Source: a virus (Duplodnaviria; Caudoviricetes). From it: a stretch of 64,000 nucleotides of DNA. Made by a program: the position numbers and the translations under genes. The stretch lies in IMG/VR virus record IMGVR_UViG_3300044723_001152, positions 1 to 64,000 of that record; one strand, given 5' to 3'. The stretch's first letter is position 1, and every line of letters begins with the position of its first letter. Below, one piece after another: positions 2 through 46,262 of the stretch. Under the pieces are notes generated by a model. The model did no database searches, was not told the origin of the DNA, and worked only from the letters and a program-made list of their open reading frames with translations.

Positions 2-541
2 AGAACTATTAGTAATTGTTGCGTTGGTAGTAGATGTAGCCACATCTTTGATTGTACCAGAGTTTAATGATGTTGCGTTAGCACCAATTGATAACACATC
101 ACCTGCGTTTGTAGCAGCGTTAGCAGCTGCGATTGTTTCTCTGAATACTAATTCGTTTGTACCAGTACCAGAGATGTAATCTGCTGTTAAGTTTCTAGCT
201 GGTGTATCATTTGTAATCGTTAAGTTTGGTGTACCACCTGATGTATTTACAACAACTGGCTCGTTAAATCTAACTCTTACGTCAATGTTACCACCATCTG
301 ATTTATCAAATGATGTTGTAATAAACTCGATTTCTGTAATATCAGCAGCACCTAGTGAAGCAGATAGTCCGCCTATAGCGACCAAAACTTCTTCGTCTGC
401 TGAGGTGTTGTCGTTTCCTGATAATGCTGAACCCGCTTCTCTTACCCAACCTTTTGTATTAGCAAAGACTTCTTTTTTCTCTGCTGTAGTAAGGTTCTTA
501 GGTTTGGATTCGTCACTATCACTTGCTCCCCATAGTCCCAT
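2..541 (-). CDS. Probable virion structural protein, partial (runs off the left edge; not in the ORF track)
   Basis: Manual translation from ATG at 541 with SD AAGGAG: MGLWGASDSDESKPKNLTTAEKKEVFANTKGWVREAG...VRVRFNEPVVV...YISGTGTNELVF. Beta-rich and Ig-like, open to the window edge. Confidence 0.75.
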   Translation of the reverse strand, partial: MGLWGASDSDESKPKNLTTAEKKEVFANTKGWVREAGSALSGNDNTSADEEVLVAIGGLSASLGAADITEIEFITTSFDKSDGGNIDVRVRFNEPVVVNTSGGTPNLTITNDTPARNLTADYISGTGTNELVFRETIAAANAATNAGDVLSIGANATSLNSGTIKDVATSTTNATITNSS

Positions 542-581: not shown

Positions 582-1172
582 CTATTTATATCCTATTTTC
601 TTTAAGTCTGATATTACTTGTGGTGTCGACTTATAGAGTATAGGTTGACCTTTCGCCTGTTTCCATTCAGTAGTATTCTTTTTGAAATCATCAATTAGAA
701 CATTACCCTTAGCATATACCCGTTTTTGGTCTCTACGGACTATATGTATCCTCTCTTTATCCGTCAGTTTTAGGTTCCTCTGTAACCACAACCTCTTACC
801 CTTTATACTGTTTAAATCGTATGGTGTGTAGGCTGATAGTATGTGTGGATTAAACTTACGAATGAATGACCATAACTTCATGCCACCTGGTGTCCAGGGT
901 AGAGTTGGCCAAAATAACTTGTATTGATTGACTGGTTCCCATTTCTGCGCCTTGTTAGGAGCTGATAACCAGTCTTCAGCGTCAGAATACCCGGACATCT
1001 GCATTGGTCCAGGTTCTGACGGATTCTTTGATTTCAGGTTAAACATGTTGGCAATACCTCTGTTGAAATCACAGAGCACACCGTCCATATCACAATAGAT
1101 AGTTGGGAGACCGTCTTGTTCTTGGACTAATGTTATGCCACGAATAGTCTCCGCTAGTGCGGAGTATCTCAT
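582..1172 (-). CDS. HAD-superfamily phosphatase, 5'(3')-deoxyribonucleotidase (NT5C)-like
   Basis: Motif I DMDGVLCDF, HILSA (motif II), K in GKRLWL, and motif IV LIDD. Confidence 0.85.
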   Translation of the reverse strand: MRYSALAETIRGITLVQEQDGLPTIYCDMDGVLCDFNRGIANMFNLKSKNPSEPGPMQMSGYSDAEDWLSAPNKAQKWEPVNQYKLFWPTLPWTPGGMKLWSFIRKFNPHILSAYTPYDLNSIKGKRLWLQRNLKLTDKERIHIVRRDQKRVYAKGNVLIDDFKKNTTEWKQAKGQPILYKSTPQVISDLKKIGYK

Positions 1173-1844
1173 CTATTTTCCCATACTCTTAGATATTGCT
1201 TTACGTCTCTTATGTAGGAACTTGTCTGAACTATCCACATCACCATCGTTATCAATGTCTTTGTCTTTTCTATCTTTAAATTTTTTCTTTACTGCCTTTG
1301 GTTGAACAGCGTCTAAACCGTCACCATCGTCTGACTTATCATTCTTGTTAGTCTCAGCCTTATAGTATGTGTCGATGATTGTATCTACCAGAGATTTAAT
1401 CTTGCCCTGTTGTGCCGCTTGTATCTCAGCATTTAGATCCTCACCGTGTACCTCAATACCCTTAGCCTCTTTGTTCTTCTTGCTCATCTTCTCAGCGTCT
1501 TCGACTTTGTATTTCTTACCTGATACTACAAATTCCTTGTCGCCATTCTGTTTAGCAGCCTGTAGTGCCTTACCAAATGCGTTGCCTTCTTCTTCTTTTG
1601 GTTTCTCACCTTTTTCTTTTTTAGAAATCGCAATCGCAGCCTGTTGTGCTGGGTTAGCAGCCTCTTGGCTAAGTTGTTTCTGTTTTTCTTCTTCCGCTTG
1701 TACTCTAGCGCTCGATTGTACGTGTGGTTTATCACCAACTACCGCATTCTGTTTATCTGTGATATCTGCTATCACGCTGGCTAGTGACCCCTTCTTTGGT
1801 TCTCCAAAGTATGTTGGGTTCCAACCTAGTGTTTTCTTTGTCAT
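1173..1844 (-). CDS. Charged low-complexity hypothetical protein with an EF-hand-like loop; probable head internal protein
   Basis: K/E-rich; contains DIDNDGDVDSSD at 1224-1259. Confidence 0.7.
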   Translation of the reverse strand: MTKKTLGWNPTYFGEPKKGSLASVIADITDKQNAVVGDKPHVQSSARVQAEEEKQKQLSQEAANPAQQAAIAISKKEKGEKPKEEEGNAFGKALQAAKQNGDKEFVVSGKKYKVEDAEKMSKKNKEAKGIEVHGEDLNAEIQAAQQGKIKSLVDTIIDTYYKAETNKNDKSDDGDGLDAVQPKAVKKKFKDRKDKDIDNDGDVDSSDKFLHKRRKAISKSMGK

Positions 1845-1862
1845 TTTAGTCTCCCTTAAAAT

Positions 1863-3383
1863 CTATCTGAATTTAATCTTACCACGTTTTGGTACGATTT
1901 TTAGTTTATATCTTACCATGTCCACGACTTCTGGTGGCATGAAATAATTTAACATGTTGGCAATAGAATCTTTTTCTGCTCTACTACCTCTCATCATCTT
2001 TTCAATTCTGTCAATCACCTTAGGATCAACTTCTTTAAACTTACCTTTTTTAACTTCACTTAATTCTTGGTTATCGTCAGCGAATATCTCTATGTAAGGT
2101 AAAAAATTTTCTGGTAATGATTTCCATTTCATACCAAACTTCATTACTAACTTTGCTTTTGCCGCAGATGAAAGAATAGGTATGTCTGCTTTCGCTAATG
2201 CTAGTAGATTTGGTTTTTGAAATCTATCCATCATGTTACGAAGTTTAGCAAATGTCTCTGGACTATGACCAGTCTCTTTACCTCTTAATGGTTCATACTC
2301 TTTTTTCAATCTGTCGATTTGTTTAGATGTAAATTCCTCTAATGGTTCATAACTTTCTGCTGATTCTTTTTGTTCTTCACCAGTTTTGTAAGAGTAAGCA
2401 GTTTTTAAGTAGTCATGTGCTTTTGTGATTTTATTTTGTAACCATTCTTCTACATCACCATCTTTACTTATCATACTTTCAATACCATCTAAAAAGTGTC
2501 TCATACCCTTTACTTGATTCATAATCATATCTACCTCTTCAGCACCACCAGTATCTTGTGGATCAACTGCTTCTTTTATTTTAGTAAATTGCATTTTATT
2601 GCCATATGCACTATAAGATATTTTCTCACCTGGTTTATATCTTTTACCTGCTTGAGATAATCTAGTCTGTTTATATACTCTAGCCTTATGTGATGGTTTC
2701 GCTGGTCTATTATTCTTGTTGTAATCGTCTCTCGCTTTCTTCGCGGATCTCTCATCTTTGAATACACCAATAACTTTCTGGTCGTTATCTCCCTTACCAC
2801 CAGTTACAACGAAAGCGTCTTTCTGTGCGACCGCCTCATCAACGGACTCTGACTTTTCTTTCTCTATGTCTTTCTTCATAGCGTCTCTCGCCTTTTGACG
2901 TTCTTGGTCTACCCTATCTTTTTCTTTTTTAAGTCTTTCTCTTTCAGAGGTTCTCTTTGCGATTGCGTCTGCCTTCTTCTTAGCCGCGTCTGCTCTACCT
3001 GAGGTAGATAATCTGTTCGCAACTTTCTTAATGCCACTTGCCGCACCTTTGGCTGCCATACCAGCACCCTTGGCGATGGCACTACCTGCCGCCTTCGCTG
3101 GTTTAGATGTTACTGCCTTCGCCGCACCCTTAGCCACTTTACCAACACCCTTCGCAATACCTTTTACTGCTTTGAATGGTAGTGTGATTGGCGCTACTGC
3201 GACTTTACCAATACCCTTGGCAATCTTGCCTATAACTTCTTCTAATTCTTCTTGTTGGTCCTCATCCAGACTATCATAATACTCATAAAATTGTTCGTCA
3301 TCTAGTTGTAGGACACCGTCAATATACTCCTCGAACATCATCTGCTCTTGGATCTGTGACATATTTAAACCGTATCTTTGCAT
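1863..3383 (-). CDS. Modular hypothetical protein, probable head-packaged internal protein
   Basis: 506 aa with its own late promoter (3402-3409) and SD GGAG. Modules are separated by LEE/VDE/IKE/LSE junctions and include a K/A/G-rich amphipathic segment. Confidence 0.7.
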   Translation of the reverse strand: MQRYGLNMSQIQEQMMFEEYIDGVLQLDDEQFYEYYDSLDEDQQEELEEVIGKIAKGIGKVAVAPITLPFKAVKGIAKGVGKVAKGAAKAVTSKPAKAAGSAIAKGAGMAAKGAASGIKKVANRLSTSGRADAAKKKADAIAKRTSERERLKKEKDRVDQERQKARDAMKKDIEKEKSESVDEAVAQKDAFVVTGGKGDNDQKVIGVFKDERSAKKARDDYNKNNRPAKPSHKARVYKQTRLSQAGKRYKPGEKISYSAYGNKMQFTKIKEAVDPQDTGGAEEVDMIMNQVKGMRHFLDGIESMISKDGDVEEWLQNKITKAHDYLKTAYSYKTGEEQKESAESYEPLEEFTSKQIDRLKKEYEPLRGKETGHSPETFAKLRNMMDRFQKPNLLALAKADIPILSSAAKAKLVMKFGMKWKSLPENFLPYIEIFADDNQELSEVKKGKFKEVDPKVIDRIEKMMRGSRAEKDSIANMLNYFMPPEVVDMVRYKLKIVPKRGKIKFR

Positions 3384-3401
3384 TTTATCTCTCCGTGTTA
3401 C

Positions 3402-3409
3402 TATTTATA
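3402..3409 (-). promoter_or_regulatory. gp55 late promoter
   Basis: TATAAATA upstream of the 506-aa gene. Confidence 0.75.
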
Positions 3410-3760
3410 CTAATTGTCAACTTTAGATCCTGCTCGCCATTGGTAGCATGACCAATACCCTGCGGTCGTCTTATCTTTCTTCTGGTCGCAATTGTGCCTC
3501 GCACGGAAAGATGCTCTCGCTCCTGGGTCGTCTCTCTTAATACTCATGTTAGGGTCACCAAAATTAACCTTGACTACGTTACCCTTCTTGTTCTTCACAT
3601 ACACGTGGAACTTAGAATTACCACCACTAGAACGGATTGGGTCATTTAGATTTACCTTCTTGCCCTGGTATTCTGCTTCCTGTATACCTTCCTTCTCATG
3701 TTCATATACCATCATCTCGCAAACATTGTCTATATGTTCAACTTCTTTTCTAGTTTTCAT
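3410..3760 (-). CDS. Conserved phage hypothetical protein (FRARHxC...YWSC motif)
   Basis: 116 aa; FGDPNMSIKRDDPGARASFRARHNC...AGYWSCYQW resembles a motif I recall from large phages. Confidence 0.7.
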   Translation of the reverse strand: MKTRKEVEHIDNVCEMMVYEHEKEGIQEAEYQGKKVNLNDPIRSSGGNSKFHVYVKNKKGNVVKVNFGDPNMSIKRDDPGARASFRARHNCDQKKDKTTAGYWSCYQWRAGSKVDN

Positions 3761-3761
3761 C

Positions 3762-5765
3762 TTATTTCCCTTTTACTTTTGAAGCCAAGTCTTTATCTGC
3801 CTTGCCCCAAGTTCCACTTGATTTTGTTACGAAACTGTTAACACGAGCCATACCCCATTGTTGTGGAGTTGTGCCTGGTCTGTGTCCAGTTCTCCATGCG
3901 GCCATGCCTCTGTTATATACCTTCATCAATACACCATATGGCATCCCTGATTTGGCTGCCTTCTTCTTAACACCCTCGTTCTCTGATAGTAACTCATCGA
4001 ACATCTCAGATACGGTCTTGTCCAGGTATAACCTGTAATCTGTACCATACTCGTCCTTATACTGTTCGATTGTCTCACTTTCCTCTGACCAAAATTTGAT
4101 ATCCTTAATCTCCTGTTCGACATCTTCGCCAAACTTCTTCTTAAATGCCATTGTGTGTTTAGATGGTTTAGTCTTAGCGTCAGCATCTCCTGGTGCGGGT
4201 TTGTATGCCGCAGGGTTATCATCGTCCATCTTCGCACCTTTTGTAAAGTGTCTGTCCCTGGAAACTTTTGTCGATTTCTTTAGACCCTTATAATATACGT
4301 CTGGTTGTGTGCCAGGTCTATTTTTGATATCTGGATCTTGCCCTGTCTCTTTCTTTCTCTCATCATCTTTACTCTCTGCTTTGATGGTAGCACCATAATA
4401 GTTTTTCATATCTATGGCAAATTTATTGAGGTCTTCACCTTTACCATCTATTCTAAAACTTTTTCTATCGCTCATCTTATCAATTCTAAAACCTGTTTTC
4501 TTACCAAATCTTTTTATATCGTCCATCGCCTTACGTCTTTTTACTGGATCTTTAATGGTAACTATCATCTTTTTAAATTCATCAAGTTCCACTTCTTCAA
4601 ACTTCTGGAACTTTCTATTACCAACTAACTTACCATAGTCTCTTACCTGACCTGGTGTTTGTATGTTGAATGTTCTCATCGTCTTAATCTGGTCTGCCTT
4701 ATCTGGTCCCTGTGTCCAATTATCAATGTCCTTGATAGCAGGTTGCCCTGGTGTGGTCACTGGTAACTTACGTTCTTTCTTCTTTGCCTTCTCTGTCTCT
4801 TTCTGTTCATCATCAACATGCTTCTTTTGTTTATCCTTGGCGTTGTTGATTTCTTCATCGAAAGTTGAGAATGTCTTCAACGTCTCGCTATTCTTTTGTA
4901 GTACCAACTTCTTCTTATCAACGTTCTCTGTCTGTAACTCTGTGTCGATAGATTGTGCGGGTTGAATATCATCTAGGAATGCTTTCTGTATCCCACCATC
5001 TTCCATCTCGTATTGGACGTAATTTGGTCCTCGTTTAATAATCGTTCCAACATTACCACTTGGCTTGTGTTCAACTGTCTCACCCATCAGGTATATCTCG
5101 TTGTTGTGGTATTGTTCTCTTATATCTTTCAATTCCTCATTATCACTTGGGGCAAGTATTTCTTCATTCACACCCATCCCATTTTTTAAATCTTTAAATA
5201 ATTTCATGGCGTCATTCTCCTTGGTGCCTGCGATAAGTCCTGCTCTGAAACTTTTGAAGTCATTCTTCATAGCGTAATCCCTCATTTTACTGGCACTCAT
5301 TCCTTTCGCACCAGTGGCGTCTGGGTCTCTACCCCCAGCACTCACTACTTCAACCGTATCAAAGTTATAGTCCTTACCTTTATATTTGTTAATCAATGTC
5401 TTAAATTCTGCGACCCTATCACTACCTGCGACCATATAGACATCAGTATATTTCTTATCAAATCTATTTTTCAATATTTCCATGAATGTTCTTTCACGTC
5501 CTGTCGCTGGTAAAATTTGTATGCCTACTGGATACATCTTTTTCAGATAGTCAATCTTTTGTTTTACACTCAATGGATTCTTCTTACGATCCTGAGTGGC
5601 ACTCACATATAGCACGGGCAAACCTTTTGCCCTCTTTGCCACTGTGATAACTCTGTCAATGAGACGTTGGTGACCTATCGTAGGTGGATTCATACGACCA
5701 AAAGCAAACACCACTGTCTGTTTTCGTCCTACGTCTTTTCTCAATAGTTCCTTTAACGTCTTCAT
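3762..5765 (-). CDS. HIGH-motif nucleotidyltransferase (NadD/cytidylyltransferase-like) fused to several C-terminal modules
   Basis: FGRMNPPTIGH (TxGH), VAGSDR and MSASKMR (KMSKS-like) lie in the first ~200 aa. An SH3/KOW-like segment and a C-terminal RGMAAWRTGHRPG...WGMARVNSF module follow. Confidence 0.8.
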   Translation of the reverse strand: MKTLKELLRKDVGRKQTVVFAFGRMNPPTIGHQRLIDRVITVAKRAKGLPVLYVSATQDRKKNPLSVKQKIDYLKKMYPVGIQILPATGRERTFMEILKNRFDKKYTDVYMVAGSDRVAEFKTLINKYKGKDYNFDTVEVVSAGGRDPDATGAKGMSASKMRDYAMKNDFKSFRAGLIAGTKENDAMKLFKDLKNGMGVNEEILAPSDNEELKDIREQYHNNEIYLMGETVEHKPSGNVGTIIKRGPNYVQYEMEDGGIQKAFLDDIQPAQSIDTELQTENVDKKKLVLQKNSETLKTFSTFDEEINNAKDKQKKHVDDEQKETEKAKKKERKLPVTTPGQPAIKDIDNWTQGPDKADQIKTMRTFNIQTPGQVRDYGKLVGNRKFQKFEEVELDEFKKMIVTIKDPVKRRKAMDDIKRFGKKTGFRIDKMSDRKSFRIDGKGEDLNKFAIDMKNYYGATIKAESKDDERKKETGQDPDIKNRPGTQPDVYYKGLKKSTKVSRDRHFTKGAKMDDDNPAAYKPAPGDADAKTKPSKHTMAFKKKFGEDVEQEIKDIKFWSEESETIEQYKDEYGTDYRLYLDKTVSEMFDELLSENEGVKKKAAKSGMPYGVLMKVYNRGMAAWRTGHRPGTTPQQWGMARVNSFVTKSSGTWGKADKDLASKVKGK

Positions 5766-6838
5766 TTTTTCTTACTCATTTCCTTGTAGCCTTTTAATCT
5801 ACTCTTTTCTTTTCTACCCCTATTCTTAGAGGCGTCTTCAAAACCCACGATGTCCTTACCTTTGTGTGACGCATCTTTGCCATCACCATTTCCGTAAGTA
5901 CCCTTGTCTCTATTATATTGTACCAACTGTTTGCGATACTCTATACGTTCTGGTGATGATTGAAACTTCTTGTATTCTCTCTTATAGTCTCTCTCTGCTT
6001 TCTCACCAATAGGTGTTGTTAGTCTAACCTTCTTATCTTCACCCTTAGCCCGTTGTAAGTCAGTGGCACTTGGTGCCCCTTTCTCACCAGGTTTTCTCAT
6101 TCTCTTGCCACTCGCTTTTCTTTTACGAATATTATGCCAGAGACCTTTTCCTTTTTCAGATATAGTCATTTCTTCCCTCATTTGTTTCTTTTCTAATTCT
6201 CTTTTTATCCACATTTTTGCTGTGTAATTTGTTATAGGTTGTTTCACTATCTTACGAACCATCTTATAAGATTTTTCTAATATATCATCATTTGATTTAT
6301 TATTATCAATCACAATAAAGTTTTTCATACCAAATAGTCTTTGTAGTTTTCCCATATTTGCTTGTATTTCTGAATGACTTTTTTTTACGATATCATCAGG
6401 AACTGTTCTATTTCTTTTGGTATTTCTTGTTAACGCAACATCTAAACTTGTATTCACAAATATCATATAACAATCATAACCTAATCTTTTTAATCCTCGT
6501 AAACCTATTTCAATTTTTTTTGTATCTCTTGCTGTACTATCAATAACTAATCCTAATCTACCTTTAATATACAATTCTAAACTTTTAGCAGTTAATTCTT
6601 TCGACTTTAATCGCAATCTATCTCTCTTATCTTGTTCACTAGATGGCATGTCTAAAGATAAACCTGCTTTCTTTAATGCGTTTTCAAAGGGAGTGTCTGA
6701 ATTAACATTCTTTAATCCTAGACCTGGTGTTATTCTTTGATTAACATAAGTCTTACCAGAACCTGGACCACCAGCAAGAAAGAATGCCTTGAAGATACCT
6801 GGGTCATATAAACCTTCCTTGATAATAAATCTTTCCAT
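5762..6838 (-). CDS. P-loop kinase (zeta-toxin/AAA_33-like) with basic and HNH-like C-terminal modules
   Basis: Walker A AGGPGSGKT, LVIDST Walker B, and YMIFVNTSLDVALTRNTKR lid. The C-terminus reads GDGKDASH...SKNRGR. Its stop overlaps the start of the nucleotidyltransferase gene. Confidence 0.8.
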   Translation of the reverse strand: MERFIIKEGLYDPGIFKAFFLAGGPGSGKTYVNQRITPGLGLKNVNSDTPFENALKKAGLSLDMPSSEQDKRDRLRLKSKELTAKSLELYIKGRLGLVIDSTARDTKKIEIGLRGLKRLGYDCYMIFVNTSLDVALTRNTKRNRTVPDDIVKKSHSEIQANMGKLQRLFGMKNFIVIDNNKSNDDILEKSYKMVRKIVKQPITNYTAKMWIKRELEKKQMREEMTISEKGKGLWHNIRKRKASGKRMRKPGEKGAPSATDLQRAKGEDKKVRLTTPIGEKAERDYKREYKKFQSSPERIEYRKQLVQYNRDKGTYGNGDGKDASHKGKDIVGFEDASKNRGRKEKSRLKGYKEMSKKK

Positions 6839-6841
6839 TGA

Positions 6842-7555
6842 TTATACCCGCATTGTCCTTGGATTATCTAATATGATTAAATCAAATATTGCACCAGCAC
6901 CTGTTGTTGCGCCTGCTTTAATTCTTACTTCTAAATCTGTCTTTTCATCAAATTCTAATGGTACAGGATATTCGTATGTTACAGGACCACCAGATGAACC
7001 AAATTTACCTTTAATATTAAAAGCACCATTTTCTGGTTTTGCCAAAAATTCAAACTCACATTCTTTTGCTTTTTCTAAATTGCCTTGAAATTTAATTAGA
7101 TATCCTTTTTTACCAGCAGGAATTGTATATAATGCCATAAGTGTTTGACCTTTGCCTGCAAGTATTTGTGCGGCAGTTTTACTATCTGCTGTTATTGTGA
7201 GAACACCCACATTTGATGAACCTGTATTTGCTGTTAATAATACTGCTCTAAATATTCTAAAAAATTCTACTGATCCAGCAGAACCACCTATTGTTAAAGT
7301 TTCTGAAACTTCGTTGTAACTAGCATCCAATCCTGACACTAAAACTGTACCATCATTATCTGAACTTGTATCACTTGAAGTGACTTGTGCTGTGCCAGCG
7401 CTAGAAATATAAGTATAAACATTTGAAGCGTCTATAACACTTTCAAAACTGGTGCCTACTGTTGGATTGTATCCAAACTTATTAATATGACTTACGCCTC
7501 TAACAAGACCTCTTGCAATCTGAAAATTTTGTTCGTTAATATATCCTACAGTCAT
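6842..7555 (-). CDS. Hypothetical beta-rich protein, probably virion-associated
   Basis: 237 aa, S/T/G-rich with predicted beta character; lies in a late operon. Confidence 0.6.
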   Translation of the reverse strand: MTVGYINEQNFQIARGLVRGVSHINKFGYNPTVGTSFESVIDASNVYTYISSAGTAQVTSSDTSSDNDGTVLVSGLDASYNEVSETLTIGGSAGSVEFFRIFRAVLLTANTGSSNVGVLTITADSKTAAQILAGKGQTLMALYTIPAGKKGYLIKFQGNLEKAKECEFEFLAKPENGAFNIKGKFGSSGGPVTYEYPVPLEFDEKTDLEVRIKAGATTGAGAIFDLIILDNPRTMRV

Positions 7556-8790
7556 TATCCTTTAGCCCAATTCTTAGCCGCGGTGAAATTTTGAATAGAA
7601 AACTCTAATCTATCGACCAATTTAACTGCCTTACCATTCTTATCAACTGCCACATACCCCTCTGGGTTTGTCGCCTTTAAACCATTGCCGTCTCTCTTAA
7701 ATGTGCCTATACTCTTTGCCTTGTTCAACTTGTCTATGATAACCTTCTTGGCTCTCTGTAGAGATTTATATGTGGCACATGCCATGTATATACTCGTGTT
7801 GTGGTCATCTATAAATTTTAGACCATTGTCCTGTATCGTCTTGTATTTCTCTTTTGACTTCTCTGTCTTTACCTTATCTATCTCTTTCTGTGTTCTCGTT
7901 TCGAAAAACTCTCTGAAAGCATTCGCTGTCTCTTTTGTGGAAGGTAAATCACTAGAGGCACGGATATAACTGTTGAGATATGCCTTGAGTTGGACACCAA
8001 TAGATAGTGTGTTCTTTTCTGTTTTGATTTTGTTGAGTAGTTCTTTACCCTGTTTGAGACTACCACTCGCCATGTTCAGTATCTTTTGTAGTGATTGACT
8101 TTCACCAATCGTCATCAATGAGTTACCAGATACGTCCTTATAACTTGCGTCATCGAACCATACCTTTGGACTACGTCTCAACTTCTTAACGTTGGCTCCA
8201 AACTTCGCCGTCATCTTATCAAAACTACTGCCCTTGTATGTCGTGTGGAAAACTATACCTAACTTACTACTCGCAATCTTCTTACCAAATGGTGTATTCT
8301 CTGGCACCATGTAAACGATAGTGTTAGGTTGGAATGAAATCATTTGCTCAGACTTACCACTACCATCTTTATATGTGGTCGTCTTCTTACCAGATGATGT
8401 GAACATCAAATCACCCTGTAGTATCTCTTTTATGCCTAGTGATGGTAGATATTCCAAACACTCACGGAGGATATTCTGTAACTCACCCTGGTGATTGTTT
8501 CGTATATCTTGTATCGTGTAATTAACTTTTGGAGTTTTGTTGAATACTGCCTTGGTGCCCACGAAAAATTTACCATTCTCTGGTGATGGACCACAAACTA
8601 TGGCAGGCGCACCGTCCCACTTGACGGATACGTTGACACCCTTACTGGCATTACCAGATAACATGTCTTTTAGTGACGATAGGAAGTTGATGGCATTTAA
8701 CCCACCCTCATATCCATTGTTGATTATATCGTCTTCCGCATGTTCTAAATGCGTGTTCTTATCTTCTTGTAGGTCTATCATAACTCCCAT
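7555..8790 (-). CDS. DUF6267-like protein with ATP-dependent ligase/capping (covalent nucleotidyltransferase) motifs
   Basis: KWDG (motif I, aa 57-60), ILQGDL (III), IVFHT (IIIa), EGYV (IV), VKLVDR (V); N-terminal KNTHLEH. Late promoter at 8808-8814. Confidence 0.7.
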   Translation of the reverse strand: MGVMIDLQEDKNTHLEHAEDDIINNGYEGGLNAINFLSSLKDMLSGNASKGVNVSVKWDGAPAIVCGPSPENGKFFVGTKAVFNKTPKVNYTIQDIRNNHQGELQNILRECLEYLPSLGIKEILQGDLMFTSSGKKTTTYKDGSGKSEQMISFQPNTIVYMVPENTPFGKKIASSKLGIVFHTTYKGSSFDKMTAKFGANVKKLRRSPKVWFDDASYKDVSGNSLMTIGESQSLQKILNMASGSLKQGKELLNKIKTEKNTLSIGVQLKAYLNSYIRASSDLPSTKETANAFREFFETRTQKEIDKVKTEKSKEKYKTIQDNGLKFIDDHNTSIYMACATYKSLQRAKKVIIDKLNKAKSIGTFKRDGNGLKATNPEGYVAVDKNGKAVKLVDRLEFSIQNFTAAKNWAKG

Positions 8791-8807
8791 TTATATACTA
8801 AAATAAC

Positions 8808-8814
8808 TATTTAG
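8808..8814 (-). promoter_or_regulatory. gp55 late promoter variant
   Basis: CTAAATA upstream of the ligase-like gene cluster. Confidence 0.65.
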
Positions 8815-9065
8815 TCAAGCAAGAAGTCTGGTATGCCTCCATTTATTGCCCACACTTGATTTTTATTGTGAAAATCTGCCAATTCCTTGGCTTTCTCACG
8901 GAAATCAAACACCGCAACTGTTCTATCTTTGTTCTCAACGACAGCAAACTTATACTTACCGTCTCGTCTCTTAGTCTTTACAGAATACTCAATACTTGAA
9001 GTCTTGGAACTTCTTGTACTTTTCTTCTGGACTTTCTTCCGTTTCTTTAAGGTTATGTTCGACAT
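8811..9065 (-). CDS. Small hypothetical protein overlapping the end of gp41
   Basis: 84-aa ORF with 77-bp overlap; fills the gap between gp41 and the late promoter. Confidence 0.5.
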   Translation of the reverse strand: MSNITLKKRKKVQKKSTRSSKTSSIEYSVKTKRRDGKYKFAVVENKDRTVAVFDFREKAKELADFHNKNQVWAINGGIPDFLLD

Positions 9066-19400: not shown

Positions 19401-20651
19401 TTAAAAATTATTAAAGTTAAACCAAAAGTTAGTTTTGATTTGACCTGTCGATTTCGTCATCGCACCTGATCCAATACCTGTATCCGTCATTGTGATACTA
19501 GATGAGGACAACATAGTCTTCCCTATCATCAAGTCAACGGTAACACTGGCACGTCCTGCCTTACCTGGTTTGGGTGTCATAACGATAGTCAAAAATTTAC
19601 TACGTACCTCTTGTAGAAACTTTTGAAGTTCTGGTGATTGCCTAGAGGACAATACTCTCATCTTCTTACCCTCACCAATACTGGCATAGAAATCGTCACT
19701 ACCGTCCATGCCAATGAGTTCTAATAAATTCTCGTTTATCTTTGATTTGTTCTTCCTATACACAGCGTTAAATTCTTTTACGATGATATCTGCCGTGTTT
19801 GTCTGTGTCTCTTTACTTGCCTTGCGACCTATGTCCTTATACTTCTTAAATAACTTCTTCTCTTTGTCGTTCCTAATCTTGTTCGTCAGTAACGCAATCG
19901 CTTTTGATTTACCTAGGTCTTTACTTGCGGCTTTCAACATCGTATCATAGATGACCTTTTGTGCCTTCTCTAATGCCTTAGATGTGAAGTTCTTATCCTT
20001 CGTCAGACTTGCGAATAGGGATAGTAGTGTTGAGTTCGCCAGGTTGATACTAGATGATTTGTATGCCTTTAGACTTGCGGCAATCTCTTTAACGACCGCA
20101 CCCTTGTCTTTCTTACGAGCAGATAGGACTATGTCCGCCTTACTCTCACCCTTTAGACTATCACCAGTCAGTTGTATATCGAAGTTTGTTATCTTCAGGT
20201 CTGCGGTCTCTGCCAACATATCTGAGAATATACTCTCCGCCATCGCCTTACCACCATCTTCCATCCTCTCAATCTCACTCGCAAGTGATTTGTAGTTGGT
20301 CAATGTTTTCAGTTTGTTGTCATGGAATGCCTTCTTGGCCTTTGCGAATACTTTACTCGATTGTGTGCCAGGTAGATTTAACCCCTTACTCTCAATCAGT
20401 TCTGCCAGTGCCTGACCACAAACATACTCAGAATAGTAACCTAATCTGGATTTACTGTCTTGTTTCACCTCTTCTTCTTTTATCATAGATCCCACTTTCA
20501 CTCTCTTTATACTACCCATCTTAACATTTGTCAATGCTGAAAATGCCTTTTTAAATCCATTGACGATACCATTGTATGCCTTACGGATAAAATTAACGAA
20601 TCCGTCAAATAGTCCCTCGTTCAGGTCTCTATGTTCAGAAAATTTTAACAT
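19401..20651 (-). CDS. Putative PD-(D/E)xK restriction-endonuclease-like protein with an internal-protein-like N-terminus
   Basis: GYYSEY helix, then KADIVL...SLK (D...SxK variant). N-terminus MLKFSEHRDLNE. Directly downstream of the methylase. Confidence 0.55.
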   Translation of the reverse strand: MLKFSEHRDLNEGLFDGFVNFIRKAYNGIVNGFKKAFSALTNVKMGSIKRVKVGSMIKEEEVKQDSKSRLGYYSEYVCGQALAELIESKGLNLPGTQSSKVFAKAKKAFHDNKLKTLTNYKSLASEIERMEDGGKAMAESIFSDMLAETADLKITNFDIQLTGDSLKGESKADIVLSARKKDKGAVVKEIAASLKAYKSSSINLANSTLLSLFASLTKDKNFTSKALEKAQKVIYDTMLKAASKDLGKSKAIALLTNKIRNDKEKKLFKKYKDIGRKASKETQTNTADIIVKEFNAVYRKNKSKINENLLELIGMDGSDDFYASIGEGKKMRVLSSRQSPELQKFLQEVRSKFLTIVMTPKPGKAGRASVTVDLMIGKTMLSSSSITMTDTGIGSGAMTKSTGQIKTNFWFNFNNF

Positions 20652-20656
20652 GCTAC

Positions 20657-20663
20657 TATTTAG
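20657..20663 (-). promoter_or_regulatory. gp55 late promoter variant for the nuclease-like gene
   Basis: CTAAATA overlapping the dam stop; ATG 5 nt downstream. Confidence 0.65.
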
Positions 20664-37548: not shown

Positions 37549-38814
37549 TTACATTAAGTTAGTTACTTTTACCATTCTGTAATAGATGTTTGCTTGGTCT
37601 GTACCAACGTCACTTGCCTGAGCAGAACTTTCCGCAAATGGGTTTCTAATTAGACCATATCTAGTTTTGAAACCAATTTTTGGTTGGAAAGTAGATTCAC
37701 CAACCGCACGTACCATTTGTAGTGGAACGTATGGGCAGTAGAACATACCAGCATCGTAAGGTGAAGTTCCTTTGTAACCTACTACAAAGTATTGAGCCGC
37801 TGTGTTGTTAGACGCATATGGATCAATGTACACTTTGTATCTACCGTTTAATGTACCAGCAAAAGTGTTACCAGTATCATCAACGTTAAGTGAGTTGTTA
37901 AGAGCAGGAGCGTAATCTAATACACCAGCCATCTGTAAAGCAGAAGCAACGTCAGAAGAACAGATAATGATATTACCTTTTCCACGTCTTGTTTCTTGTG
38001 CGATTACGTTAGCGTCTCTCTCAACTTGGAACATTAAGCCTTTGAACTTCTCTACTGACCATCTTCCGTTGGAATCAGTATCTAAGTCAAAAGTACCTGA
38101 TGTAGTTGTGTTTGTGTTAGCACCTTTTTTAGCCTTTTCGTAAATTGTTCTTACAACTTCTCTGTTGATTTCCGCAAGGATCTCAGCAGATAGGATGTTA
38201 GCCAATTCAGTCTCAGCATCTAAACCGTGGATCGCTTTAAGGTCTTGAGCAAGTTCCATTGTGTATTCTGCTTTTAACTGTCTAGTTTTAGCAGTAACAG
38301 TAGATTTCTCAATACTGAAAGCCATCTCTGCGAAAGATGAAGACGCTTCTGCCGTAGCAGTAGCAATACCAGTACCAGCAGTTACTGAGGTAGTAGTGTC
38401 GTTCATCAATCCTGGATTTAGGGAAGAACTATGAGTACCAGTTCCAGAAAAGTCTGAATCTGCTTCATTGAATAGCGCTTCTGTGCCAGAGTTACTTGTA
38501 AATCTGCTCTTCATAGCGAAGATTAGACCAGTTGGACCAGTCATTGGTTGTACACCACAGATGTCGTATGCGATTAAGTTAGGCATTGCTCTTCTAACTA
38601 ATGAGATTAGGATTGGATCCCAGTTTGCTACAGCACTGTCACCAGTTACGTTCGCAATCTCACCTAGAAATGCTTTGTCTTCTTTAGCCGCTTTTTCTTG
38701 GTTTTCCAAGATAACAGCAGTTACAGCCTTTTTGTAGGGATTGTCAATCTTTGGCAAATCACCATGTTCTAAGACTGGAGACCACTTTTCTTGTAAGTTT
38801 TGTGAATTAAACAT
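37549..38814 (-). CDS. gp23: Major capsid protein
   Basis: LVRRAMPNLIAYDICGVQPMTGPTG, ELAQDLKAIHG, YCPYVPL, QPKIGFKTRYG. Confidence 0.99.
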   Translation of the reverse strand: MFNSQNLQEKWSPVLEHGDLPKIDNPYKKAVTAVILENQEKAAKEDKAFLGEIANVTGDSAVANWDPILISLVRRAMPNLIAYDICGVQPMTGPTGLIFAMKSRFTSNSGTEALFNEADSDFSGTGTHSSSLNPGLMNDTTTSVTAGTGIATATAEASSSFAEMAFSIEKSTVTAKTRQLKAEYTMELAQDLKAIHGLDAETELANILSAEILAEINREVVRTIYEKAKKGANTNTTTSGTFDLDTDSNGRWSVEKFKGLMFQVERDANVIAQETRRGKGNIIICSSDVASALQMAGVLDYAPALNNSLNVDDTGNTFAGTLNGRYKVYIDPYASNNTAAQYFVVGYKGTSPYDAGMFYCPYVPLQMVRAVGESTFQPKIGFKTRYGLIRNPFAESSAQASDVGTDQANIYYRMVKVTNLM

Positions 38815-38836
38815 TTTGTTTATCTCTCCTTATTTC

Positions 38837-40108
38837 TTATTGTTTGTTGTAGATATCTCTACTTTTTCCCCTACTGATAGCAGCCGTATAGCGAGACATT
38901 GAATCACTCAAGTCCACTACTGTGTTACCGTCATTAGAATCTTCGTTGATAGCGTCAACATTAGTTGCCGGTGCTTCTTTCTTAGTACCAAAGTAACTCT
39001 CTTTAATAGTATCAAGTTTCTTCTTGTAAGCGTCAGCGCCTTCAAAACTAATATCTTCAACTAATGATTTCATCTTCTCTTTCTCAGTATCAGCCATTCC
39101 GTCAACTGTGCTCTCAAAGATTTCGTCTTTAGTGAAACTATCGATAATTGTTTTATCTTCCACAGATTTTTCTACCATCTCATTAACTTTAGATTTCAAG
39201 TCTTCCAACTCTTTCTCTTTCGCTTCTAAGATGTCGTATTTTTCATCTGGGACATCAATGTAATGATCCTCAAATAATTGTTTTAGACCACCAATAAAGT
39301 CCTCAGCGATTTCTCCCTTGATTCCTTTTTCGATTGCTAATTCATTATCTGCCATCCATTGTTCAACAACATAGTTTAAGTAGTTGTCAACCTTAGTAGT
39401 TAACTCTTCCTTAACACTTTCTTTCGCTTCTGTTAGTTCGCTTGAGTATTCACCCTCTAATCTTTCGATTTCAGATTTTACTTTTGATTTAACAGCCGCT
39501 TCAAAGATTGTTGCCGCTTTAGTTTTAAACTCCTCTGATAAAGAATCATCTCCAGAAGTAAGTGCCGCAACATCAGCAGAAACGTCAATAGATTTTACTC
39601 TCTGATCCACTGCTTCTTTGTTTACAGTTTTACTTTCTTCTTTTTCTTCTTCGTCTTCTTCATCATCATCGCCGCCGTGCATAGCAGCCATCATTTTGCC
39701 GTAAGAAGCAGCGATTTCAGATTTCTTCATTTTAGACATGTTATCATACATAGCCTGGATCATACCTGATTTAGTCTTAGGCATTTCCATGATTTCATCT
39801 TCATCTTCTTTTTCTTTATCGTCTTCCTTGTCGTTTTCTTTCTCGTCTTCGTCAGCGTCCTCTTTTACTTTTTGAGGTTTTTCTGCCGGAGCCGCACCTT
39901 TAGTAGGAGCACCAGAGTCTTTTTTCATTTTGTCGTCTGCTTTAGTCTGACCAGGTTTATCGTCTGGTTTTACTAATGCTGGACCAAGATCCTCATAGTC
40001 GCCGCCCTTTTGCATTGGGTCCGCTTTACCAGCGGATGCTTTTGGAGCGTCTGCGCCCTTAGGAGCCTCAGAAACGATTTCTTGTTCGTTTTTGTATTCT
40101 TCAGCCAT
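38837..40108 (-). CDS. gp22: Prohead core scaffold protein
   Basis: FKTKAATIFEAAV, YLNYVVEQWM, AEDFIGGLK; acidic coiled coil. Confidence 0.95.
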   Translation of the reverse strand: MAEEYKNEQEIVSEAPKGADAPKASAGKADPMQKGGDYEDLGPALVKPDDKPGQTKADDKMKKDSGAPTKGAAPAEKPQKVKEDADEDEKENDKEDDKEKEDEDEIMEMPKTKSGMIQAMYDNMSKMKKSEIAASYGKMMAAMHGGDDDEEDEEEKEESKTVNKEAVDQRVKSIDVSADVAALTSGDDSLSEEFKTKAATIFEAAVKSKVKSEIERLEGEYSSELTEAKESVKEELTTKVDNYLNYVVEQWMADNELAIEKGIKGEIAEDFIGGLKQLFEDHYIDVPDEKYDILEAKEKELEDLKSKVNEMVEKSVEDKTIIDSFTKDEIFESTVDGMADTEKEKMKSLVEDISFEGADAYKKKLDTIKESYFGTKKEAPATNVDAINEDSNDGNTVVDLSDSMSRYTAAISRGKSRDIYNKQ

Positions 40109-40154
40109 TTTGTATATTCTCTCCTTATTTCGAAATAAAAATTTTGCGTATAAC

Positions 40155-40161
40155 TATTTAT
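40155..40161 (-). promoter_or_regulatory. gp55 late promoter of gp22
   Basis: ATAAATA overlapping the gp21 stop. Confidence 0.65.
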
Positions 40162-40814
40162 CTTTTTGTTAATTTGTTCATAAAACTCTCAAAGGCATTT
40201 GCCTCTGCCGCAGCCTTACGTTGTCTAGTTTCACGCTCAATTTGTTCTTGTATTTCAGAAACATCTTGCTCTTTGATGATTCCGTTGTCCCAGATCCATT
40301 CTTTACCTTCCATTACGCCATTGACGAATGCTTGTGGTGCGGATGGATCCGCTACGATATCTGCGGCAGTTGCCAGGTAAAAATCACTTTTTACATAGTT
40401 CGTACCACCTTTATTCTCCAAAGAGCCCATGCCTCTGGAAGAAACTCCTAATTGTGCGCCTTCGTCTATCAAAGACTTCACAATCTTACCATATGGTGTG
40501 TCTGTAATCTTCGCTTCGCCTATATAATTACCCTTGTTATCACCCTCTAACTTAGTTATCAAGTGTGATACTCTCTCCAGATTTACAGTTGGACCGTCAG
40601 GATGCCCTAGTTCTCCAAATGCTCTCTTTCTCTGGACAAATTCTTTATTATATCTGCTTACTTCCTTCTCTAATACTTCTTGTGGGTATACACGGCCATT
40701 TCTATTCTTAATGTTGGCTTGCATGAAGATACCCTTTATCTTATGAGACTTCTTACCATTATCTTCTTCAACAATGTATTCTGCCTCGTTGATTTCTTCT
40801 CTAATTAGTTTCAT
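40158..40814 (-). CDS. gp21: Prohead protease
   Basis: GIFMQA, NGRVY, GELGHP, GVSSRG, DIVADPSA. Confidence 0.97.
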   Translation of the reverse strand: MKLIREEINEAEYIVEEDNGKKSHKIKGIFMQANIKNRNGRVYPQEVLEKEVSRYNKEFVQRKRAFGELGHPDGPTVNLERVSHLITKLEGDNKGNYIGEAKITDTPYGKIVKSLIDEGAQLGVSSRGMGSLENKGGTNYVKSDFYLATAADIVADPSAPQAFVNGVMEGKEWIWDNGIIKEQDVSEIQEQIERETRQRKAAAEANAFESFMNKLTKR

Positions 40815-40838
40815 GGTGCGTATTTTCCCCTTTTGTTC

Positions 40839-40846
40839 TATTTATA
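40839..40846 (-). promoter_or_regulatory. gp55 late promoter of gp21
   Basis: TATAAATA. Confidence 0.75.
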
Positions 40847-41233
40847 TTATCTGACCTCTAAAACGACGGAATAACTATCACCGTTCACAAAATTGTGAGT
40901 GGAGAACAAAATATCTCCTGTTGGTGTTGTCGCATTATTGGCTATCTGTATCGCTGGTGTTTGTAAGTCTATCGTGCCAGAACCACCTAGGAAGAGTGCC
41001 GTTGCGTTGGTATCACCTTCAAACAGTATTTCCACCGCCCCTTTGGGGTCAGTAGTGTTGATTGAATAGATTACCCTCGCAATCTTGGTAGAGGTTGACA
41101 AGTGGTTCAAAGACGCACTTGTCATTTTCTCTACTAAACTCTCACCAGTACCATCTGACTTGTTGGTGAACTTCATCACCGTCTTACTACCAGCAACGTC
41201 TGCTATAGTCTGTGATGTTACTGTGTCAGCCAT
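40847..41233 (-). CDS. Hypothetical virion protein, probable paralog of the adjacent gene
   Basis: Beta-rich, 128 aa, in the head operon. Confidence 0.65.
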   Translation of the reverse strand: MADTVTSQTIADVAGSKTVMKFTNKSDGTGESLVEKMTSASLNHLSTSTKIARVIYSINTTDPKGAVEILFEGDTNATALFLGGSGTIDLQTPAIQIANNATTPTGDILFSTHNFVNGDSYSVVLEVR

Positions 41234-41637
41234 TATCTTGTCTGTCCTGAAGCGGTATAACCTCTAGTCTTCTTAACTTCTAAGATGAACGTACCAGTCA
41301 CCGCACTTGCGTTGGTAATCTTTATATCACCAGTTACGCCTGAACTCTCTGGGTTAGTTATCATTGGTTGTTTACCATGATACCCATACTCGCCACTACC
41401 ATGTACTGATATTGCGTGGTCATCTGAACTTGCGTCAAACAAGAATGTCACATCACTTGTCGCTGCCGTTGTGTTCCACTTGATACTCTTAATATCTAAC
41501 GTTGGGTTAGATGAGTGTCCTCTTAATGCGGATGCGTCCACAACTGATACAGCACTATTCGTATCGTTATTGATTTCGAACATTACCACGTGTCTAGTTT
41601 CACTATCCACTAATGTTCTTTTATTGACAACTGCCAT
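41233..41637 (-). CDS. Hypothetical virion protein
   Basis: Beta-rich, 134 aa, ends TGDIKIT...FILEVKK, similar to the neighbour's TGDILF...VVLEVR. Confidence 0.65.
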   Translation of the reverse strand: MAVVNKRTLVDSETRHVVMFEINNDTNSAVSVVDASALRGHSSNPTLDIKSIKWNTTAATSDVTFLFDASSDDHAISVHGSGEYGYHGKQPMITNPESSGVTGDIKITNASAVTGTFILEVKKTRGYTASGQTR

Positions 41638-41649
41638 TTTTACTCTCCT

Positions 41650-41898
41650 TTATATGGTTAGACCTGTTTCCTTTTCGAAATAGGTTTCTATGTCTTTTTG
41701 TTGTACCCTGTATTTCTTTGCCACGTCTCGTACAACCCTTGGAAACGTAGTCAAAACTTTTTGCGGTGTCTTCGCCATCATGCCAAATAAGTCATCGACC
41801 GCCTTCTTTACTTTAGGCGATAACTTACGATAGGCAGGTGAACGTTTATGTTCGTCCTTTTCCTTAATCGTCAATTTCAGTTGGCTCAACGTCAACAT
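41650..41898 (-). CDS. gp68: Prohead core protein gp68-like
   Basis: Size and position in the 20-67-68-21 order; basic. Confidence 0.6.
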   Translation of the reverse strand: MLTLSQLKLTIKEKDEHKRSPAYRKLSPKVKKAVDDLFGMMAKTPQKVLTTFPRVVRDVAKKYRVQQKDIETYFEKETGLTI

Positions 41899-42076
41899 TA
41901 CTTTCCTTATCCGCTTCTAATTCTTTGTTGAGTAAAGTACCTGCGAGGTCTTTTCTCTTTGTGTCTAACTCGACACCCACTTTATCTGATAGTGCCGCCT
42001 TGAAAGCCTTCTCTGCCTCAACGTTGTCACCTGTATCTAAAGCGTTAATCATGTTCTTTGTATCTTCAATACTCAT
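41864..42076 (-). CDS. gp67: Prohead core protein gp67-like
   Basis: MINALDTGDNVEAEKAFKAALSDKV; immediately after the portal gene. Confidence 0.65.
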   Translation of the reverse strand: MSIEDTKNMINALDTGDNVEAEKAFKAALSDKVGVELDTKRKDLAGTLLNKELEADKESNVDVEPTEIDD

Positions 42077-46213: not shown

Positions 46214-46255
46214 CTTGTTTTCTCCTAATTTTAAAATTAAAATGTTTCTTACTAC

Positions 46256-46262
46256 TATTTAG
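46256..46262 (-). promoter_or_regulatory. gp55 late promoter of gp18
   Basis: CTAAATA; SD AGGAG downstream. Confidence 0.65.

Follow-up and report, generated by a model that had tools for sequence, protein, structure and literature searches.

A late gene island of a T4-like pelagimyophage whose predicted enzymes may be packaged in the virion head

We analyzed a block of eight genes, denoted A to H, at positions 582-8790 of a 64,000-nucleotide window (positions 1 to 64,000 of IMG/VR record IMGVR_UViG_3300044723_001152). The source contig, 88 kb in length, belongs to a T4-like pelagimyophage whose closest named relative is Pelagibacter phage HTVC008M. The eight genes are co-oriented on the minus strand, with overlapping or abutting stops and starts, and sit directly downstream of the genes for UvsX and the gp41 helicase. 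The block is the pelagimyophage version of an island that T4-like marine phages hold between the gp41 helicase and the gp61 primase. The cyanophages Syn9, P-HM2 and S-SM1 carry the same island between gp41 and gp61, and the order in HTVC008M is identical, minus B and with some modules in separate genes. The original prediction, in which modular polyproteins of this cluster are processed in the prohead and injected, was partly supported by our analysis. We consider it rather likely that the island is a late, virion-directed module and that several of its products are packaged in the head via propeptides of the T4 internal protein (IP) or Alt type and enter the cell with the DNA. The eight genes are as follows.

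7555 to 8781, minus strand: A, DUF6267 protein (Pfam PF19782)
6842 to 7555, minus strand: B, 237-aa beta-sandwich, probable virion protein (phrog_8198, structure model, homolog of S-CREM2 ORF176)
5762 to 6838, minus strand: C, P-loop kinase with two small basic modules (profile matches)
3762 to 5765, minus strand: D, HIGH-motif (cytidylyl/adenylyl)transferase-like protein with further modules including DUF5824 (phrog_3041, profile matches)
3410 to 3760, minus strand: E, 116-aa protein with an acidic leader and a basic module (phrog_7595)
1863 to 3383, minus strand: F, 506-aa charged protein (C-terminal half conserved, HTVC008M gp132)
1173 to 1844, minus strand: G, 223-aa lysine-rich protein (module shared with Syn9 gp185 and PHM2_164)
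582 to 1172, minus strand: H, HAD-family 5'(3')-deoxyribonucleotidase-like phosphatase (Pfam NT5C, phrog_2643)

The seven products other than B are basic, with isoelectric points (pI) of 9.1-10.1. Late promoters at 8808 and 3402 had been proposed for the cluster, and both are real. Together with the promoter of the next gene they are located as follows.

8807 to 8815, minus strand: late promoter variant ACTAAATAG heading the A-E operon, overlapping the stop codon of an 84-aa open reading frame (ORF) (TAAATAG core, conserved position)
3401 to 3409, minus strand: canonical late promoter TATAAATAG, 17-18 nt before F (exact motif, also upstream of HTVC008M gp132)
582 to 590, minus strand: late promoter TATAAATAG of the next gene, overlapping the H stop codon (motif match)

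The promoter motif is strand-specific, intergenic and positionally conserved. Exact TATAAATA occurs in 15 copies on the coding strand of the 88 kb contig and in none on the opposite strand. The TAAATAG core has 20 coding-strand copies, 16 of which fall in the 8.5% of sequence outside genes (p ~3e-14), and these intergenic copies sit just upstream of starts, mostly those of structural genes. The ACTAAATAG variant at 8807-8815 lies 16 nt ahead of an ATG at 8790, is also present ahead of the tail sheath gene (46255-46261), and is retained at the equivalent spot in 60 of 67 related loci, while the remaining seven, which are the most divergent, have TATAAATA. The cyanophage islands start with (A/T)CTAAATAG. 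Exact TATAAATA is not found at the proposed 8808 site, where the scan with the TAAATAG core and the comparison with relatives show the conserved ACTAAATAG. A nearby TATAAATG at 8788-8795 is not conserved. In A, the start of the longest ORF (ATG at 8790) overlaps this motif. A GGGAG Shine-Dalgarno sequence precedes the ATG at 8781, which also agrees with where the relatives start, and from these features A probably starts at 8781 and comprises 408 aa, not 411.

The two promoters would drive the island late, unlike its replication-gene neighbours. Such timing, which had been claimed for the cluster, agrees with RNA-seq of P-HM2, where PHM2_161-165 and 168-171, including the DUF6267 ortholog (162) and two cytidyltransferase genes (163 and 164), fall in late clusters, while gp43, uvsX, gp41, mazG, gp61 and nrdAB around the island are middle genes (PMC5082946). 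A pelagimyophage genomics paper reported that late-promoter prediction failed in these phages, and it contains nothing on this island. In the most divergent relatives (loci L076-L082), the homolog of the 84-aa ORF is followed by late TATAAATA and then, within at most 10 nt, by a TTGACA ... GATATA sigma-70-like pair, so that the island may have dual early and late promoters there.

For the capsid targeting sequence (CTS) of T4, a review reports that the first 10 residues of IPIII suffice for packaging, with positions 4 and 7 acting in targeting and 8 and 10 in processing, and that only about 7 residues are removed from Alt (PMC9026906). In the T4 genome record, ipII and ipIII start with MKTYQEFIAE followed by Ala, ipI has a near-identical 7-mer, and Alt, gp67, gp68, gp21, gp22 and gp24 carry [LI]xE within 6-10 residues. 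We wrote a 10-residue rule from T4 data alone (IPIII mutagenesis; residues 4, 7, 8 and 10), which asks for a hydrophobic or aromatic residue at 4 and 7 for targeting, and an aliphatic residue at 8 and Glu at 10 for gp21 processing. A relaxed 7-mer was a conservative relaxation of the 7-residue start of T4 IPI-III. The 10-residue rule was matched by 71 of 119 cytidylyltransferase-like proteins of the D family (60%), by 45 of 149 DUF6267 representatives in a set below 50% identity (30%), and by none of 117 B-family proteins, none of which has a CTS-like start. Among 939 control ORFs only six matched, and four of these were T4 ipII, T4 ipIII, SSM1_190 and Syn9 gp184. Both SSM1_190 and Syn9 gp184 start with MKKFSAFL(N/S)E followed by Ala, so that all four rule positions agree, and the tag precedes an 80-residue extension before the enzyme domain. 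Only two unexpected control ORFs pass a looser T4-derived rule with their N-termini, and one of them encodes T4 RNA ligase 1 (rnlA, L084 41340-42464; gp63, also a tail-fibre attachment factor).

The relaxed 7-mer was found only in ipI-III within 72 kb of T4 and only in D within the 88 kb contig; among 1420 ORFs of related loci, it was confined to D, E and a family of small gp139-like proteins. Family members that lack the tag begin directly at the conserved domain, and residues 1-7 are disordered in the structure model of A, so the tag is not part of the fold. Judged from these N-terminal sequences, a true CTS of the T4 type is present in the D and DUF6267 families at large. For the families the support for capsid targeting is good, and for D and E of this phage such targeting is plausible. 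In the searchable literature, we found nothing connecting these marine phage enzymes with a targeting sequence of the T4 type, no mention of DUF6267, and no link between CTS and cyanophages except one match in a reference list. The gp139-like proteins, 137-143 residues in length, are encoded in the same island of related pelagimyophages (loci L017, L019, L020, L057, L063 and L083, and HTVC008M gp139 at L001 9620-10033), at a point beyond the end of this contig. Their starting 7-mer is that of T4 ipI except for Ser in place of Thr, with I-S-E or V-N-E at residues 10-12, and by this likeness they are good candidates for true internal proteins.

The window's own N-termini appear, from their sequences, to be short and degenerate versions of the T4 tag. 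An [IL]xE ending within the first 15 residues is present in six of the eight cluster proteins, compared with 11 of 82 other contig proteins (13%; Fisher p = 4e-4), and those 11 include gp21, gp23 and a gp68-like protein. Protein D starts with MKTLKE and has Leu4, Leu7, a further hydrophobic residue at 8 and Lys at 10. It matches the relaxed IP 7-mer, whereas A, B, C, F, G and H do not, and its N-terminal extension before the enzyme domain is 16-19 residues long. The starts of C, B, H and F, at 8-13 residues and ending in [IL]xE, are Alt-like. Thus, the claim that the N-termini resemble the T4 targeting sequence holds for the enrichment of [IL]xE and for the 7-mer of D, and it does not extend to the full rule.

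Several of these sites are conserved. In A, LxE at residues 4-6 is kept in 52 of 52 unique relatives, and in C, IKE at residues 6-8 is kept in 19 of 19, with an N-terminus of variable length. The acidic 28-residue leader of E ends in IQE followed by Ala, after which the basic module begins; IQE28 is conserved in 20 of 20 unique relatives, which start with MKS/T-hydrophobic-K-E/Q-V and two of which pass the relaxed 7-mer. In H, an 18-20 residue extension ends in VQE (VQE18, 9 of 9 unique relatives), an extension that the NT5C family lacks. Across relatives the sites persist while the number of preceding residues varies, and the N-terminal extensions of the window proteins lie outside the family domains. 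The phage also encodes the machinery of prohead maturation, with gp21, gp22, gp23 and a gp67-like gene all within 37549-42076.

40158 to 40814, minus strand: gp21 prohead protease (phrog_207, E = 4e-77), with its own TATAAATAG promoter upstream
37549 to 38814, minus strand: gp23 major capsid protein, in which L-G-E aligns with the T4 gp23 maturation site

We propose that several island proteins would be loaded into the prohead core through their short N-terminal propeptides of the T4 IP or Alt type, that gp21 would trim these after [IL]xE, and that the trimmed proteins would remain within the head alongside the packaged DNA and reach the cell with it. Loading into the prohead is the most likely fate on present sequence comparisons, and it is most strongly supported for D and E, less so for C, H, A and F. 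We infer targeting and trimming in this phage, as well as ejection and an action of the enzymes on the host. Ejection, action before transcription and a role in counter-defence are what we would purely conjecture.

Virion proteomes of cyanophages bear on this proposal. The S-SM1 virion proteome (Table S8) lists the T4-GC190 cytidyltransferase with 25 peptide counts, GC1453 with 12, GC1454 with 10, GC1455 with 7, and the GC425 S-layer-like protein and GC426 with 17 each (PMC3037559). These six virion proteins correspond to SSM1_188, 190, 191, 192, 195 and 197, so that most of the island is represented. In S-CREM2 virions, the cytidylyltransferase ORF154 was detected with 3 peptides, its neighbours ORF156 and ORF160 were also detected, and ORF176 was found with 20 unique peptides and 39% coverage; the authors already propose that such proteins are carried in the virion (PMC10665884). 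ORF176 is 51% identical to B. Presence in virions, which the original prediction had assumed for the whole cluster, is therefore seen in relatives, for the homologs of D and B and for island neighbours, and does not extend to the DUF6267 ortholog of S-SM1. For the present phage, late expression and virion association are predicted from orthologs and conserved promoters.

Several observations weigh against packaging in this phage. None of the window proteins satisfies the full 10-residue T4 rule. In D, position 10 is Lys and not Glu, and any trimming would thus fall after residue 6. Protein A has only a six-residue stub, MIDLQE, that aligns with the end of the full tag of its relatives, and G lacks an N-terminal xE site. 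The family counts contain related sequences, so that their p-values overstate independence, and the N-terminal helix could serve another role. No terminator was found between gp41 and A, so read-through by middle transcripts is possible. The DUF6267 ortholog SSM1_189 has no CTS and is not in the S-SM1 virion list, and for S-CREM2 ORF154, with only 3 peptides, the authors caution about carry-over of abundant late proteins (PMC10665884). The searchable literature yielded no virion proteome or transcriptome of any pelagimyophage.

The identities of the proteins suggest what such cargo might do and also bear on a different explanation. Protein A matches PF19782 with E = 4e-132. In 72 sequences below 50% identity, K54, D56, G57, D124, E374, G375, K387 and R391 are invariant, and the ligase/capping motifs I (KxDG), III, IV (EG) and V (K..K/R) are present in order. 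The AlphaFold2 (AF2) model of A (pLDDT 92.7) has a nucleotidyltransferase fold. When the model was compared with known structures using VIA-align, ranks 1-13 were all RNA or DNA ligases, with middling Z scores of 7.8-6.0, 164-198 residues aligned and root-mean-square deviations of 3.7-5.3. Foldseek gave no match in the PDB at E <= 0.001, sequence searches with A and with the D enzyme domain found nothing among solved structures, and a profile of the 72 A sequences gave nothing useful there. The chain has a helical insert at ~225-353 and ends ~20 residues after motif V, without an OB or other C-terminal nucleic-acid-binding domain. From these motifs and the model, A is predicted to be a ligase-fold covalent nucleotidyltransferase, which we do not class as a DNA or an RNA ligase.

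Protein C is predicted to consist of a PSTK/PNK/Zeta-like kinase (residues 1-220) and small basic modules at ~231-273 and 280-347, the first of which is a separate gene (gp128) in HTVC008M. Zeta_toxin and AAA_33 matched above their cut-offs, and PSTK matched weakly. Protein D is composed of a transferase domain (17-200), a second module (216-282), a charged linker and a C-terminal DUF5824 domain (600-659). The matches to PF01467 (18.9 bits against a cut-off of 21) and TIGR00125 (18.6 against 27.7) are both sub-threshold; a PPTIGHQ motif of the (T/H)xGH type is present, phrog_3041 'cytidyltransferase' matches with E = 3e-151, and neighbours in the protein atlas are NMNAT/CTP_transf-like. We predict that D is a HIGH-motif nucleotidyltransferase-like protein that falls just below the Pfam cut-off. 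In H, the NT5C match begins at residue 25 and that of phrog_2643 at residue 23; the match is to NT5C and not to the polynucleotide kinase (PNK) phosphatase. Neither NCBIfam nor the protein atlas gave a function for E, F or G. The basic module of E has a pI of 9.9. In F, the first 60 aa are acidic (pI 4.1), the C-terminal half is conserved, and one stretch is rich in Gly, Ala and Lys. This stretch, at about residues 50-125 (3030-3240), contains amphipathic repeats and has a weak, sub-threshold match to the SseC translocator (E = 7e-4). Among the enzymes originally listed as payload, the ligase-like, kinase, nucleotidyltransferase and phosphatase proteins would correspond, by predicted fold or family, to A, C, D and H, whereas B is no enzyme. 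For a role in the host, RNA or nucleotide end chemistry is our best guess.

The same enzymes could act in the cytoplasm without being packaged, as a split kit (PNK-like kinase, HAD phosphatase, ligase-fold enzyme and NMNAT-like transferase) for RNA end healing and sealing or for nucleotide salvage late in infection. Detection of relatives in virions would then reflect carry-over, and the N-terminal motifs would have nothing to do with targeting. The RNA ligases among the best fold matches of A, the resemblance of C to PSTK/PNK-type kinases, the HAD phosphatase H, the mention of possible carry-over by the S-CREM2 authors and the missing A ortholog in the S-SM1 virion list are all compatible with such a kit. 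However, the core conserved across phages is A plus D, which are fused in P0203, and C and H are missing from the cyanophage islands. H resembles NT5C rather than the PNK phosphatases, late timing would be odd for repair or salvage, the T4-rule N-termini are far too family-specific for chance, and six neighbouring S-SM1 products are all in virions. On balance, we regard unpackaged enzymes as a rather unlikely explanation.

Protein B differs from its neighbours. Its gene is a lineage-specific insertion, with no counterpart at this position in HTVC008M. The AF2 model of B (pLDDT 89.6) is all-beta and matches jelly-roll, beta-sandwich and tail-tip-like folds, which are generic matches with low TM-scores. 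B is predicted to be a structural-type virion protein and not a payload enzyme, so the claim that none of the eight genes is structural fails for B, given its beta-sandwich and the 20 virion peptides of S-CREM2 ORF176. The island products might instead be virion or assembly components outside the head interior, in the tail, baseplate or decoration, or gp63-like assembly catalysts, and would not be injected. B and the S-layer-like neighbour are indeed structural-type, the T4 rnlA record gives a dual role in tail-fibre attachment, and the HTVC008M island adjoins more virion genes, for example a tail assembly chaperone. Yet the enzyme families bear N-termini of the T4 internal-protein type, which direct proteins to the scaffolding core in T4, and the enzymes are strongly basic like the T4 internal proteins. 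We therefore judge a location outside the head interior to be highly improbable.

The original prediction further held that short modules are joined at xE sites and that gp21 cuts these polyproteins at internal (I/L/V)xE in the prohead, freeing modules that are injected. The proteins are truly modular, and their modules move between genes. Elsewhere, modules of C, D and G are found within other genes; the C-terminal ~60-aa module of G recurs at the N-terminus of Syn9 gp185 and inside PHM2_164, and DUF6267, the transferase and DUF5824 are fused in P0203. The sites themselves are mostly no more frequent than by chance. In each of the eight proteins, the number of internal [ILV]xE sites equals that expected from composition (for example, 7 against 7.0 and 4 against 4.2), and a general enrichment was rejected on this basis. 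In this phage, gp21 and gp22 are about 2-fold enriched in [ILV]xE; gp22 is a known multi-cut substrate, so the specificity of the protease seems to be kept.

When junctions were compared across relatives, the conserved xE sites were few: VNE201 and VSE587 in D, IQE28 in E and VQE18 in H, and no junction site was conserved in C. VNE201 marks the exact point of the gene split in P-HM2, where the second half begins with an IP-like start of its own; VSE587 lies just before DUF5824. In extended or fused DUF6267 relatives, [LIVM]xE nearly always precedes the DUF6267 domain, and in some fused relatives a whole internal CTS-like stretch lies ahead of it. The expectation that junctions stay while modules shuffle is thus borne out for the movement of modules and for a few sites, but not for C. 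Polyprotein cleavage lacks statistical support in the eight proteins and draws some support from the fused relatives. However, the conserved junction sites of D have Val at P3, not Leu or Ile, and retained sites may be relics of gene fusion. Cleavage into modules at internal sites is suggested by these sequences and not shown, and the full model of freed and injected modules seems to us quite unlikely.

We next set the favoured reading, packaging through N-terminal propeptides, against known systems. Like the island products, T4 internal proteins are basic and have a short tag, M-K-T-aromatic-polar-E-hydrophobic, that ends in [LI]xE and is handled by a gp21-type protease, and the four positions defined by experiment are matched in the D and DUF6267 families. 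They differ in that the window tags are degenerate (D without Glu10, A with only LxE), in that the cargo here would be large multi-domain enzymes compared with 8-20 kDa in T4, and in that the genes here are clustered in one late island, whereas T4 ip genes show no TATAAATA within 60 nt upstream (T4 record). T4 Alt, a packaged ADP-ribosyltransferase, is a large head-borne and ejected enzyme with a very short propeptide ending in I-T-E, and it has a TATAAATAG late promoter just upstream, as in the island. Alt comes closest to A, C, D and H, whose M..[IL]xE starts are 6-8 residues long, although the enzyme classes are different, the island has no ADP-ribosyltransferase, and packaging of the island products is a proposal.

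The T4-GC190 'cytitidyltransferase' proteins (S-SM1_190, Syn9 gp184 and S-CREM2 ORF154) are orthologs of the D enzyme domain with 37-38% identity. They share with D the position after the DUF6267 gene, are late in P-HM2 and have been detected in virions. Unlike D, they have the 80-residue extension with the full T4-rule tag, and D alone adds C-terminal modules including DUF5824. Compared with T4 Pnkp and Rnl1/Rnl2, the island likewise combines in one block a PNK/PSTK-type P-loop kinase, a phosphatase of the HAD family and an enzyme with a ligase fold. In contrast to that system, each activity has its own gene, the phosphatase belongs to the NT5C type, a C-terminal nucleic-acid-binding domain is missing from the ligase-fold protein, the genes are late and not early, and the trio is not conserved in cyanophage islands. 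In giant phages (phiKZ, 201phi2-1 and SPN3US), many head-internal ejection proteins are cut behind Glu by a protease related to gp21 and then reach the host, but the phages and protein families are unrelated, and the present phage is not known to have an inner body.

T4-like phages of SAR11 and picocyanobacteria are among Earth's most abundant viruses. Cyanophage papers reported 'non-structural' enzymes in virion preparations and were unable to separate cargo from contamination; a T4-rule CTS on exactly those enzyme families would offer a mechanism and an easy way to recognize cargo by sequence. Two uncharacterised enzyme families, DUF6267 and the cytidylyltransferase-like proteins of phages, are candidate first-minute effectors, and the tag could also be used to load foreign proteins into marine phage heads, as has been done in T4. 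A broader scenario can be imagined, in which the capsids of SAR11 and cyanobacterial T4-like phages are pre-loaded with CTS-tagged multi-module precursors of four enzyme types (ligase-fold nucleotidyltransferase, PNK-like kinase, HAD phosphatase and HIGH-motif nucleotidyltransferase), and gp21 cuts these at retained CTS/[LI]xE junctions. The modules set free would be delivered together with the DNA and, ahead of all phage gene expression, would mend or alter RNA or nucleotide pools, counteracting, for instance, anticodon nucleases or defences that deplete NAD. We hold this scenario to be improbable as a whole.

Two further features flank the island.

2 to 541, minus strand: S-layer-domain-like virion protein, truncated by the contig end (72% identity to HTVC008M gp135; homolog of S-SM1_195, T4-GC425)
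8811 to 9065, minus strand: 84-aa basic ORF between gp41 and the island (conserved in 67 loci; the HTVC008M annotation is without it)

Elsewhere in the window, a 416-aa gene at 19401-20662 follows a Dam-like methylase and has a ACTAAATAG variant 4 nt before its start. Its product has Phe4, His7 and L-N-E at 10-12, as well as 11 [ILV]xE sites against 4.8 expected, and by these sequence features it may be another packaged protein. Two ORFs of 128 and 134 aa (40847-41637) separate the gp68-like gene from gp21; they match no PHROG family, and T4 has no counterpart of the pair at that position. The 84-aa ORF at 8811-9065 overlaps the 3' end of gp41 by 77 nt.

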